Assembly (NCBI GenBank): GCA_964012805.1 | Contig: CAXGUD010000061.1 | Coordinates: forward strand, 1-18,304 | Origin: an uncultured Bacteriovoracaceae bacterium | GTDB lineage: Bacteria; Bdellovibrionota; Bacteriovoracia; Bacteriovoracales; Bacteriovoracaceae | DNA length: 18,304 bases | Direction: 5' to 3' | Part shown: piece after piece, positions 3,001-6,000 of the stretch | Layout: each line of letters opens with the position of its first letter | Position numbering within the stretch: position 1 is the stretch's first letter | Made by a program: the position numbers

Positions 3001-6000
3001 AATCTATCCAGTCCCAGACCAAAAGCGAAGCCATTATACTCATCTGGATCAATTTTCCCTGCCTTTAAAACATTTGGATGAATCATACCGCAGGGTAATA
3101 CCTCGACCCATCCGGTCTGCTTACATACAGAACATCCCTTCCCTCCACAAATTAGGCATTTCATATCTAGCTCGAATCCAGGCTCTACAAAAGGAAAGAA
3201 ACCTGGCCTCAACCTAACTTCAACTTCCTTTTTAAAAATCTCTCTCAAAAGAGTCTTCATAAAATAGATAAGATTTGAAACTGAAATATCTTTTCCTACC
3301 ATCATCCCTTCTAATTGATGGAAAACCATCTCATGAGAGGCATCGGTTCTTTCACAACGAAAAGCCTTTCCCGGAGCGATGAACCGAAAAGGAGGCTTCC
3401 TTGAAGTCATTCCTCTTACCTGAATGCTTGAGGTATGTGTCCTAAGAAGGTGCCGTTTTCCATCTGGAGTTTTATCATCATGAAACCAAAAGGTATCTTG
3501 CATATCTCTCGCTGGATGATCCGAAGGTATATTCAGGGCCTCGAAATTGTGAAATTCATCCTCAATATGAGGACCATCCAAAACATCAAAGCCCATTGAA
3601 ATAAAGATATCTTCAATTTCTTGTTGAATAATAGTGACGGGATGAAGGCCTCCATGGAAATGACCTTTATCCTTCATAGAATCCCTGAAAGATATATCTA
3701 TTTTGCTTTTTTCTAGTTTTTGATTTATTTCTTTCTTTTCAATTTCTGCTAATTTTTGAGACACCTGCTTTTGAACTTTATCTTTTATGTCATTAGCCAG
3801 TGGGCCTATTACTTTTTTTTCTTCAACAGTTGCTTGTTTGAGTGATTTTAGAGTTTCTGTTAAAGCCCCTTTTTTTCCAAGATACTCTGCTTTAAGATTC
3901 AAAACTTCAGCTTGGTTTTTCATTAATGCCACTTGTGATTCGAACTTTTTATAGAGTTCTTCCAGTTTTTCCTTCATCTTTTATCCCACTTTATTGCTAC
4001 TAGTTGTCGGCCCATATTTTCACGCTCAACACCTAAAATCAATGGCAAAATTGATGAAAAAAACCAGAGGGGCCAAGGCAACCCCTCCGGCAGGAAATTT
4101 TATAGGAATTAATCTGACTAAAATATCAGTTCCAAAATTATACCAGTTACCAAATAAGTGTTGATAAAATCAACAGGGCCAAAAAAATAAAGCCCAAAAC
4201 ATCCCCAAAAAGCGAGAACATGCATAAAGACGCTCCTAAAGAAAGGTCACGCCCCGCCCAAACCCCAATTTATAGAATAATCCTCCAAAAAAAAATTAAA
4301 CCAATGGGTTCGATCTCTAACTATCCTTGGGGAAGGATAAAAAAAATTTTAAAAAGAAAAATGGGTTGATTAAATCCCCAAAGGTCCTCCTAAAAAACTG
4401 AACACCTCACGAGGATGAAGCTCTCCACAACACCCCGACCCGTTTTGTCACCGGCCCCCACCATAAGCACAGACCGCTGAGGAGTCAATTTTTCTCCGCT
4501 TCGGCAAACCCAAAACTCTTATGGAAAACCACTTAGAGCGGGCCTTTGTTCCCAGCACTTTCATAACTGGTCACCTTTGTCCACGGGCTTACCTACTTAT
4601 CAAAGCGCAAACCTTGCTCATAGATCAACGAAAAAATATCGTAGACCCTAGAGGTAGCTTTGGTTTCCCAAGTAGGCTTAGCCTCATATTAACGCATAGA
4701 GAAACAAAAATCAACATCACTTTAAATCAAGAATTTTTTTATGAAGGACTTTTCGAACTGAGTTAAAAAATTTAATTATTTCTTCCTCCCTATAATCAGG
4801 GTAAGTCCATAAAAGAGGCTTATAGCTTTTGTTTTGGAACACGTAAGTCAAATCACTATAAACACCTTTTCCTAAATAAATTCTATGTGAATAAGGTTTT
4901 CCAGTTGCTAACTGCATATTTTCTAAAGAGAGGCACCCCAAATCAATATTAACTGTTCTAAACTTCACTCCCATCTTATCCTGGCTCATTTCAATTTCTT
5001 TTCCAGTAGACCAGACCTTTCCTTGAACAAAGCTTTCACGGTTTTGAAGGTTAAGACTGACTCCAAATAATCTTTGTAGAAGATTTGAGTCTCCCATTTC
5101 CTTTGAGTAGTATTTTTTCATGGGGAAAAATGGATGATCAAAGTAAAATGACTCCCCCCATTTTTTTTCCCACATAGTTTTTATTGAATCTTCACTAACA
5201 AGGTCCCTTCTAAAAAGAAAGCTCGCAAAGAAAAAAGTTTTTGTTGGTGCTTGAAGAAGACTCATAAATTAGGAAAATTGTGTAAGAAGTCTTCCATGAA
5301 AATTGAAAAGCTCGTCAACATTAACAGTTGCAGTGCCTTTTTTAGCCACAACAACACCAGATCCGCAGTTGGCTAACCAAGCAGCTTCCTCTAAAGAAGC
5401 TCCTCCTAATATACCTGCAACGAGTAAGCTAATTGCTGTGTCGCCGGCTCCTGAAACATCATAAACACTAGTTGCTGCTGTAGGTAATATTTTTAGTGGC
5501 TGATTCATTTTTCTATCTATTAAAGCCATCCCTTGTGCTCCTAATGTAATCACAAGTTTTTCAAGGTCTAGCTTTTCTAAAAGTATATCTCCGACAGTTT
5601 CAAGCTTTTTATCCCTATAACCTATCGCCTCAACCAGCGCTTGAGCTTCCAACCAATTTGGCTTCAATAATGAAGCACCCTTATACCAGTCAGGATTGGT
5701 TTTCCTGCTCGGGTCTATAGCCACAAAAATATCCTTATCTTGACAATAATTGATTAACCTATTTAAAGCATTCTTGCTAAGAAGCCCTTTCCCATAATCT
5801 TCAATAATAATACCAGAATGCTGAGGCGTAAGGTCTAATGCTCTATCAATAAAGTGCTCTTCAATTTCTCGATCAAGGCCCTTACTCGTCTCATAATCAA
5901 CTCTGCAAATTTGCTGGGTGTCCGTCGTTATTCTTTCTTTAAAGGTCGTTCTTCTGTCTTTGCAACGTATAATGCCCCAAGTAGATAGTTCATTATCTTC

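Follow-up and report, generated by a model that had tools for sequence, protein, structure and literature searches.

The window, i.e. the whole stretch of 18,304 nucleotides analysed here, carries on its minus strand a non-coding zone flanked by a DUF4416 gene (PF14385) and pheS. This confirms the layout given in the genome-wide survey's note, and the zone is indeed G+C-rich, with 0.42-0.57 over 4350-4699 vs 0.25-0.41 in the flanking 100-nt windows. A search of the window revealed neither a tRNA nor a tmRNA. The features of the locus are listed in Table 1.

Table 1. Features of the RNA locus and its neighbouring genes, numbered along the window
Feature	Position	Strand	Remarks
PfkB-family kinase gene	5269-6285	(-)	upstream neighbour; 'rfaE' is a label assigned in the present analysis
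DUF4416 gene	4717-5265	(-)	upstream neighbour
Likely sigma-70 promoter of the RNA	4686..4714	(-)	inferred by eye; -35 4714-4709, -10 4691-4686, 17-nt spacer
Long 5' hairpin	4591..4677	(-)	-30.8 kcal/mol, z -2.7
CCCGU strand	4583..4587	(-)	two possible partners: GCGG after the aptamer (extends P1) or distal ACGGG
c-di-GMP-I (GEMM-I) aptamer variant	4500..4581	(-)	from ortholog RF01051 alignments, 61-copy tallies and covariation
GCGG strand	4496..4499	(-)	can form an anti-aptamer hairpin with C92-C93-G94 or, alternatively, pair with the CCG on the 5' side
3' domain	4393..4494	(-)	closing helix 4494-4478 with 4409-4393, ends right before the Shine-Dalgarno (SD)
SD GGAGG	4386..4390	(-)	SD-like motif in 58/61 copies
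Mini-ORF TTG-Gly-Ile-TAA	4370..4381	(-)	translation inferred from codon pattern
U-rich tail of the RNA	4092..4369	(-)	RNA contigs over the aptamer also extend over it
Second promoter-like site, extended -10	4137..4164	(-)	inside the tail, ~45 nt before the terminator; 10/12 matches
Intrinsic terminator, hairpin and U-run	4057..4091	(-)	-21.3 kcal/mol, z -3.8
pheS	2916..3977	(-)	downstream neighbour, probably not the target

Distribution and transcript of the RNA

Our own core model found the element as a single copy per genome in 61/150 Bacteriovoracaceae genomes and 33/69 genera, in agreement with the 60/151 genomes counted previously, and it is absent from 89/150. BLASTN again matched both genus mates (94% and 79%) and the core in two other genera, 5/61 genomes overall. 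Exact-pattern scans were noisy; 13 distinct copies were retained by eye and the remaining matches discarded as chance. Upstream synteny is kept better than downstream synteny. Indeed, the kinase and/or DUF4416 gene precedes the RNA in 54/61 copies, whereas pheS follows in 40/61 and is absent there in 21/61; the next gene is convergent to the RNA in 9/61. In four of the five aptamer-less genomes checked, the flanking genes are directly joined. The G005 locus has no aptamer and retains the promoter, the SD, both tail motifs and a hairpin.

The presumed promoter of the window's RNA is missing from the promoter-scan list because it has only 8/12 consensus matches, and a promoter with at least 9/12 lies just upstream in 26/61 copies (5.2 expected from shuffles). 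The scan that gave the second site, within the tail, found 3 sites with 2.2 expected by chance. Terminators are far more frequent than chance would give (52/61 copies vs 0.6 expected). The RNA had been thought to end at the mini-ORF; however, four metatranscriptomes, from four studies, contain one ~500-nt contig each, a single piece that covers only 4099/4144 to 4608/4662, and the predicted terminator lies beyond. These contigs stop short of DUF4416; they give no strand, ends, level or phase and come from runs chosen using this same region. Their depths are 399, 123, 12 and 5 over the RNA and 2-4 on near-identical pheS/pheT pieces, figures that cannot rank the genes. In 21 RNA runs from 15 studies, 13-27% of the words of 3400-5300 are contained; 16 runs, among them X7 and X9 whose contigs were placed on the window, share <0.2, which, like the uncovered parts of the window, is no evidence of absence or habitat. 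Collectively, promoter, terminator and context counts plus the RNA contigs point to a stand-alone RNA, and it is probably a separate transcript rather than a pheST leader.

The aptamer and its ligand

The survey's note had proposed a new RNA class without a known ligand, matching no Rfam family. The absence of a match is correct for the window's copy, which stays below every threshold tried: Rfam matches on the window alone were due to chance, and RF01051 run against the source genome of this copy gave a single chance match, inside a coding region. It is not correct for the orthologs. RF01051 aligned end to end (1-87/87) to ten of them, of which three exceed the 35-bit cut-off (36.9, 36.5 and 35.1 bits) and seven score 23.9-33.9 bits (33.9 and 33.4 among them); with 3/61 copies passing, Rfam misses most of them. 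These orthologs make up 10/13 RF01051 matches in the family, those of L079 and L081 having been excluded as non-syntenic and that of L069 left out as a separate copy. Furthermore, the three near-invariant junction strands reported previously are J1/2, J2/3 and J3/1 of the c-di-GMP-I aptamer in the RF01051 consensus, and our core model, built from Bacteriovoracaceae alone, matches seven outside genomes at sites scoring 51-81 bits with RF01051. The structured RNA was thus rightly read as riboswitch-type, but its core, judged from sequence, is an altered form of the known c-di-GMP class I sensor and not a new class; a c-di-GMP-I ancestry of the aptamer is almost certain.

The aptamer shares with RF01051 (clan CL00126) the P1/P2/P3 three-way junction, G20, A47, A48, C92, the G14-C93 and G21-C46 pairs and a GAAA tetraloop with its receptor. 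In Vc2 numbering, as it appears in the accessible parts of PMC11705072 and PMC3764141, G14, G20, A47, C92 and C93 correspond to 4581, 4575, 4547, 4504 and 4503. The pocket bases G20, A47 and C92 and the G14-C93 pair are present in 61/61 copies, A47 and C92 having served as search anchors, which no copy failed. Of two registers for P1 the better-scoring one was used; on this basis, positions 13 and 94 are paired in 45/61 copies, by four Watson-Crick types plus U-G, and the window's copy has a G13-G94 mismatch. The P2 loop is GAAA in 58/61 copies (4562-4559 here) and P3 carries an 11-nt-type tetraloop receptor in 35/61; the receptor strands of this copy, 4538-4532 and 4521-4516, are degenerate. 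The covariation claimed earlier was reproduced in 22 copies, where 90.7% of 418 cells are paired vs 73.9% in shuffles and 28-52% with slid partners, and 13/19 pairs show double changes. The helices covary around invariant unpaired pocket bases. The aptamer is likely to bind c-di-GMP still, and the source genome encodes three GGDEF genes.

On the other hand, C44 is absent in 61/61 copies and kept in 26/26 sister copies, and a U stands at the G83 distance in 43/61 (rough register). Compared with RF01051, the copies thus lack C44 and mostly G83, a tandem GA/GA replaces AAA/GAC, U22-A45 is common (27/61), and the aptamer, one per genome, is followed not by a gene but by a conserved 3' domain, mini-ORF and terminator. 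Since the interhelical C44-G83 pair is missing, we file the aptamer as a variant of RF01051 and not as a plain member. In Vc2 this pair is described as needed for binding, which the G83C change abolished (PMC11705072, in the part available). The c-di-GMP-I-GGC variant RF03167 belongs to the same clan and weakly matched one ortholog (L005, 25.9 bits, far under the 59-bit cut-off), but the RF03167 consensus retains C44 and shows a G at position 47, whereas the Bacteriovoracaceae copies have A47 and no C44. No description of this aptamer variant was found in the open-licence PMC and bioRxiv literature.

The rebuilt P2/P3 interface, with its tandem GA and without C44-G83, could alternatively reflect a changed ligand, for instance 3',3'-cGAMP or another dinucleotide. 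The family-wide loss of C44 would fit this, but it appears rather improbable, as the base-reading G20, A47 and C92 form the c-di-GMP set in 61/61 copies. Indeed, position 20 is G in 61/61 and not the A of c-AMP-GMP (GEMM-Ib) riboswitches, an A which we take to mark cGAMP binders. In favour of a changed ligand, one GGDEF gene (L084) has a Thr at the specificity position together with the GGDEF motif, a combination given as the Hypr signature in the accessible text of PMC9140294 and PMC6456294, and riboswitch variants with new ligands have previously been hidden within the same class, as outlined in PMC5473149.

The 3' domain and the mini-ORF

Downstream of the aptamer, the 3' domain encloses a variable hairpin, followed by the distal ACGGGUC at 4443-4437 and a GGNGA-looped hairpin (4428-4420). 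Its closing duplex has a median of -17.2 vs -8.4 kcal/mol when shuffled, with z<-2 in 49/58 SD-bearing copies, and the distal CGGG motif is found in 57/61 copies. The long 5' hairpin is a genus-level feature, the 5' extension varying across the family in the upstream sequences of 13 copies. An anti-aptamer hairpin is possible in 59/61 copies and is favoured by RNAalifold; the CGG/CCG extension of P1 is possible in 41/61. The two folds are near-equal in energy (medians -66.7 and -66.3 in 50 copies), and folding models gave no consistent SD gating between them, greater SD openness being counted in 8 copies against 2 among the 50. Across 18 aligned copies, none of the distal helix's four core pairs shows a double change.

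The GGAGG and the TTG GGG ATT TAA that had been noted after this domain are both in place. However, the Met-Gly-Pro announced for the mini-ORF reads Met-Gly-Ile in the window's copy, so the proposed stalling at Pro-stop cannot apply to it. Selection for translation, also proposed earlier, appears to be right: an SD-led ORF of 2-4 codons occurs in 44/61 copies against a genome background of 5% at GGAGG sites (337/6757), and a 3-codon ORF in 40/61 against 1.5% (102/6757), the short ORF missing in 17/61. Such codon patterns suggest that the mini-ORF is probably translated. That the ligand gates this translation is a more tentative proposal and rather less likely than not; related arrangements exist. 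PMC12810186 describes an Mbox aptamer that acts on a small upstream ORF and on termination by Rho, and PMC13724677 places C. difficile c-di-GMP riboswitches before small-protein genes. In both cases the aptamer precedes a small ORF, as here, but ligand or mechanism is another. Those ORFs are described as encoding small proteins or as uORFs ahead of an operon, whereas the Bacteriovoracaceae RNA has a 3-codon frame inside a terminated RNA.

Role of the RNA and its relation to merRNA

The working part might be the tail, as a trans-acting small RNA or a protein-binding RNA (e.g. for CsrA), with aptamer and mini-ORF tuning only its level. The tails of relatives (49 counted) bear GACAUUCA and one CCANGGA motif; GACATT occurs in 28/49 (3.5 expected) and CCANGGA in 15/49 (1.2 expected). 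The aptamer-less G005 locus, with both motifs kept, and a CsrA encoded in the genome point the same way. But GGA is barely enriched (148 vs 131) and predicted unpaired in only 2/49 sites, so that the many loop GGA motifs of a CsrB/RsmZ-type sponge are missing; csrA stands in a flagellar gene string ahead of a FliW-like gene; no Hfq was found in the genome; and the window's own tail is devoid of the ACATTC motif. A tail-centred function is therefore quite improbable, but it is compatible with the explanation that we prefer and does not exclude it.

The survey's note had instead assigned the RNA to pheST. Once amended for the ligand, that model has a c-di-GMP-sensing leader which, through the mini-ORF, would set the read-through into pheST. 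This now looks very unlikely. pheS is the next gene in 40/61 copies, but a terminator lies 120-510 nt beyond the aptamer in 38/40 of these, 21/61 copies have no pheS downstream and 9 face a convergent gene; genomes without the element keep the gene string, four of the five checked abutting the flanking genes to pheS. The lack of strict sigma-70 sites between terminator and pheS beyond chance (5/38, 6.8 expected) would favour a leader, whereas a looser promoter test (27/38 vs 12.8 expected) argues against it. The GACATTCA previously suspected to be pheS's own promoter sits, in relatives, in the tail, ahead of the terminator. In favour of a leader, a single RNA contig of low depth begins at 4064, within the terminator, and continues into pheS. 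Rho is encoded here, and the combination of aptamer, small ORF and Rho has a precedent (PMC12810186, available part), but the tail shows no surplus of C (C 865, G 912), leaving a C-rich rut site unsupported. No T-box-like motif was found in 61 copies, nor an Rfam T-box match at this locus, and the absence of a conserved Phe-rich leader was confirmed, Phe-rich short ORFs being present in 5 genomes only and mutually unrelated. Finally, the element might be a decayed aptamer whose only remaining role is a stabilising one, or it might belong to the 3'-UTR of the upstream kinase-DUF4416 genes. Either would fit the 89/150 genomes without the element and the stronger upstream synteny, but is highly improbable in view of invariant pocket bases amid covarying helices, a separate promoter signal and RNA contigs that end before DUF4416.

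We therefore favour, with a probability of about 0.6, a stand-alone ~600-nt RNA that spans roughly 4680-4057, has a promoter and a terminator of its own and is built around a divergent c-di-GMP-I aptamer, the Bacteriovoracaceae counterpart of merRNA. At the level of sequence, the aptamer ancestry, its fold and intact pocket bases, the 3' domain, the SD with the mini-ORF and the terminator are established. In the absence of ligand, the 5' CCCG strand would pair with the distal CGGG, and C92-C93 would be hidden in a small hairpin. Pairing of c-di-GMP with C92 would close P1 and free the distal strand, whereupon the 3' domain could refold. The likeliest output, and the weakest step, would be an altered ribosome loading on the mini-ORF, which might alter how long the RNA persists or how it is processed. 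The RNA may store c-di-GMP, a role already suggested for merRNA, and deliver its conserved tail.

The merRNA of Bdellovibrio bacteriovorus is, according to the accessible part of PMC3627812, a 445-nt stand-alone RNA that contains a c-di-GMP aptamer, has no gene under its control downstream and is massively expressed in attack phase; that text reports no conservation beyond Bdellovibrio and offers only speculation on function. Size, stand-alone nature, aptamer and predatory host are similar. Our analysis shows that merRNA-type loci also carry an SD-led short ORF; no description of a merRNA ORF was found in open-licence PMC and bioRxiv. However, in merRNA-type copies, which adjoin mrp, the aptamer is canonical, lies close to the 3' end and is preceded by the short ORF, whereas the Bacteriovoracaceae RNA has a 5', divergent aptamer, a 3-codon ORF and the PfkB kinase/DUF4416 and pheS genes as neighbours. 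Since the locus differs and the ORF lies on the opposite side of the aptamer, orthology to merRNA is not established. The Vc2 riboswitch combines a c-di-GMP-I aptamer with RNA stability as output, as proposed here; in bioRxiv 10.1101/617340, however, it sits at the 3' end of upstream small RNAs, whose stability it controls, and also precedes a gene, tfoY. Sister families have one canonical c-di-GMP-I copy per genome in 34/150 phylum genomes, and four such copies adjoin an Mrp-type NTPase gene, like merRNA. In L121, from another family, the copy scores 50.8 bits with RF01051 and has C44; the same 3' layout was seen by eye, with an SD-led 10-codon ORF.

In its full extent, the reading would make merRNA and its kin a single family of ribosome-loaded cyclic-dinucleotide RNAs, present in one copy and common to the predatory Bdellovibrionota. 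The aptamer would gate a conserved mini-ORF, mostly ending Pro-stop or Pro-Lys-stop, this gating would set the lifetime of RNA and tail at the attack-to-growth switch, and the Bacteriovoracaceae aptamer, rebuilt without the C44-G83 strut, might differ in affinity or ligand (e.g. cGAMP); taken together, this is unlikely. A family-wide counterpart of merRNA, alongside the canonical single copies and with conserved short ORFs in both lineages, would nevertheless offer testable handles in the start codon, the stop codon, the pocket bases and the natural aptamer-less locus. Furthermore, an aptamer without a contact needed in Vc2 would serve as a test of the rebuilding that the GEMM-I fold allows.

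The c-di-GMP-I core and its distribution

As the genome-wide survey's note had it, the stretch between the DUF4416 gene and pheS exceeds its flanks in G+C content, and its sequence is conserved in both genus mates and, for the core, in two further genera. It is non-coding on the minus strand, and our own comparison found it in 5 of 61 genomes. The note had further described a new RNA class outside every Rfam family. The absence from Rfam holds for the window copy, which gives chance matches only, but not for its orthologs, to which the c-di-GMP-I model RF01051 aligns and three of which (L070, L071, L072) exceed its 35-bit cut-off. 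Judged by sequence, the core is a c-di-GMP-I aptamer and thus not a new class. Indeed, the three invariant strands noted earlier match the order of the c-di-GMP-I junction strands in the RF01051 consensus, and all 87 RF01051 positions aligned in two of ten homologous loci (33.9 and 33.4 bits). Over 150 family genomes RF01051 gave 13 matches, 10 of them orthologs of the window locus judged by neighbouring genes. Our own core model, built from 22 family copies, found one copy per genome in at least 61 of these 150 genomes, a lower bound with 27 candidates scored per genome; deeper inspection of five aptamer-negative family genomes revealed no aptamer. In the phylum sample it matched 17 of 150 genomes, and the 7 outside the family coincide with RF01051 sites scoring 51-81 bits. 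A separate c-di-GMP-I-clan aptamer, L069 (RF01051, 45 bits; RF03167, 43.5 bits), lies about 40 nt 5' of a gene with a secreted look, and has G at position 47 and a non-GNRA loop.

Positions are numbered after Vc2, following excerpts of PMC11705072 and PMC3764141. G20, A47, C92 and G14-C93 occur in all 61 copies, A47 and C92 having served as search anchors while G20 was left free; for P1, the better-scoring of two registers was taken. Pair 22-45 is formed in 61 of 61 with three pair types, and pair 13-94 in 45, with G-G in 15, the window copy included. P2 is capped by a GAAA loop in 58 of 61 copies, and 35 have an 11-nt-type receptor. In an alignment not fitted to structure, 90.7% of cells were paired, against 73.9% after shuffling and 28-52% with slid partners. 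Compared with Vc2, family copies lack C44, which is kept in 26 of 26 sister-family copies, and in P2 they have GA/GA in tandem. U usually stands in place of G83 (43 of 61, in a rough register). According to an excerpt of PMC11705072, the G83C change abolished binding in Vc2, a result that bears on binding by the Bacteriovoracaceae variant, a candidate c-di-GMP binder. The window's genome holds three GGDEF genes; one of them, L084, has the GGDEF motif and, at the position equivalent to PleD D344, the Thr typical of Hypr enzymes (excerpts of PMC9140294 and PMC6456294), and is a candidate cGAMP-making Hypr enzyme.

Relation to pheST and the 3' domain

The RNA had been proposed as a leader of pheST, which it probably is not. 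Of the 61 copies, 52 are followed by a hairpin with a U-run (0.6 expected), and among the 40 located ahead of pheS this holds for 38; 21 of 61 have no pheS downstream, and the next gene is convergent in 9. A sigma-70-like site lies 5' of the RNA in 26 of 61 (5.2 expected). In four of five aptamer-less genomes the flanking genes directly abut pheS, and the fifth (G005) retains promoter, Shine-Dalgarno (SD) and tail motifs. Its locus L181, about 100-400 nt 5' of pheS, combines a promoter-like site, a 5'-strand stub, an SD, a GC hairpin and the motifs ACATTCA and CCACGGA; with the aptamer missing, it is a natural deletion form. Between terminator and pheS, a strict promoter test gave 5 of 38, not above chance (6.8 expected), and a looser one 27 of 38 (12.8 expected). 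Since a strict promoter signal is missing there and one low-depth RNA contig starts within the terminator and continues into pheS, some read-through is possible.

Predicted folding of the whole region is modest (z -2.1). A long helix, variable in sequence, pairs the post-aptamer strand with the pre-SD strand; it has a median of -17.2 kcal/mol versus -8.4 shuffled (z<-2 in 49 of 58). CGGG, complementary to the 5' CCCG, is found within the 3' domain in 57 of 61; the CGGG/CCCG helix shows no double change at its four core pairs among 18 aligned copies and, by eye, few compensatory changes at its outer pairs. GG 3' of the aptamer allows a hairpin hiding C92-C93 in 59 of 61 and a P1 extension in 41. 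Among the 50 copies amenable to modelling, two alternative folds are near-equal in energy, and neither consistently exposes the SD better than the other (8 versus 2 of 50). Strand exchange is plausible, and a pseudoknot may form instead.

Mini-ORF and expression

In 44 of 61 copies the aptamer is followed by an SD-led ORF of 2-4 codons, which has three codons in 40; among 6757 GGAGG sites of the genome background the values are 5% and 1.5%. It is missing in 17 copies, one of them cut by a contig end. The 40 three-codon ORFs start with TTG (29), ATG (9) or GTG (2) and stop with TAG (19), TAA (18) or TGA (3); the second codon is Gly in 36, using all four Gly codons, and the third Pro in 34, using three. 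The Met-Gly-Pro-stop of the note's title does not apply to the window copy, whose SD and ORF are both present as described and whose third codon is Ile. Such a codon pattern matches what would be expected under selection for translation, in copies that are kin and not independent.

Features of the locus and of related loci
Feature	Position	Strand	Remark
Non-coding stretch	4150-4740	minus	between DUF4416 and pheS
GGAGG	4390-4386	minus	
TTG GGG ATT TAA	4381-4370	minus	
Extended -10 promoter-like site	4137-4164	minus	about 45 nt 5' of terminator
RNA contig 1	4099-4608		
RNA contig 2	4144-4662		
RNA contig 3	4131-4634		
RNA contig 4	4144-4631		
Ordinary gene set	12713-18174	minus	by sequence, presumably 2-oxoglutarate dehydrogenase E1, E2 and lipoamide dehydrogenase
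L069 aptamer	G077:C29:2320-2391		
L084 GGDEF domain	G000:C62:2109-2582		

In each of 21 RNA runs from 15 studies, 13-27% of the words of 3400-5300 were present, never as much as half. Four runs, one study each, were mapped to the whole window, and each gave a single contig of about 99% identity, over the RNA. Aptamer, mini-ORF and tail are joined on one contig; such contigs, which carry no strand, ends or level, give a weak hint of a discrete RNA. Three of the four end at 4131-4144, near the extended -10 site. Family tails carry GACAUUCA, with GACATT in 28 of 49 (3.5 expected), and in many of the 49 a CCANGGA or CAGGAGG motif lies 5-45 nt further 3'; this pattern is absent from the window copy's tail. 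The window's genome has csrA (L082, G000:C51) beside what we take to be a FliW-like gene, within a string of presumably flagellar hook-associated genes; a search of this genome found no Hfq.

Comparison with merRNA

In the phylum sample, 34 of 150 genomes carry a single canonical copy each by RF01051, and the model matches none of the sample's 22 family genomes. By eye, most of the canonical loci examined show a terminator-like 3' hairpin and a second, distal partner for the P1 5' strand; four of those examined adjoin a Mrp-type NTPase gene. Several precede a same-strand gene farther on and could be ordinary leaders. At seven loci (L128, L131, L132, L137, L142, L144, L150) the canonical aptamer RNA is followed by a same-strand radical-SAM gene, by its appearance presumably queE. 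L121, from another family, combines a canonical aptamer with the Bacteriovoracaceae-type 3' layout.

SD-led ORFs of 10-15 codons lie 115-180 nt 5' of the canonical aptamer in L133, L134 and family f9, and none recurs in the other 17 canonical loci. All seven f9 loci (L140, L143, L146, L148, L149, L151, L152) have one, of 10-14 codons, ending in Lys-TGA, with Pro-Lys in five; that of L133 ends in Pro-Lys and that of L134 in Pro-Pro. Judged from lengths, these ORFs would lie within the merRNA-type transcript. Excerpts of PMC3627812 describe merRNA as a massively expressed RNA of 445 nt that contains a c-di-GMP riboswitch and lies adjacent to mrp, with no conserved downstream ORF and no conservation outside Bdellovibrio, and do not mention an upstream short ORF. 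On present evidence, the window RNA would resemble merRNA in mode of action; because locus and layout differ, orthology is not established.

c-di-GMP-I riboswitches are a known class, and precedents exist for an aptamer 5' of a small ORF (portions of PMC12810186 and PMC13724677) and for a c-di-GMP-I aptamer influencing RNA stability (a portion of 10.1101/617340). Excerpts of 10.1101/506055, 10.1101/2025.05.17.654431 and PMC5473149 added nothing on the Bacteriovoracaceae RNA family, and open-licence PMC and bioRxiv yielded no account of the C44-less variant. On sequence grounds, the window RNA is a variant of the c-di-GMP-I class, with predicted ligand, mini-ORF translation and function. The novelty lies in the aptamer lineage without C44, in the 3' domain carrying a three-codon ORF and in the merRNA-like pattern across the phylum.
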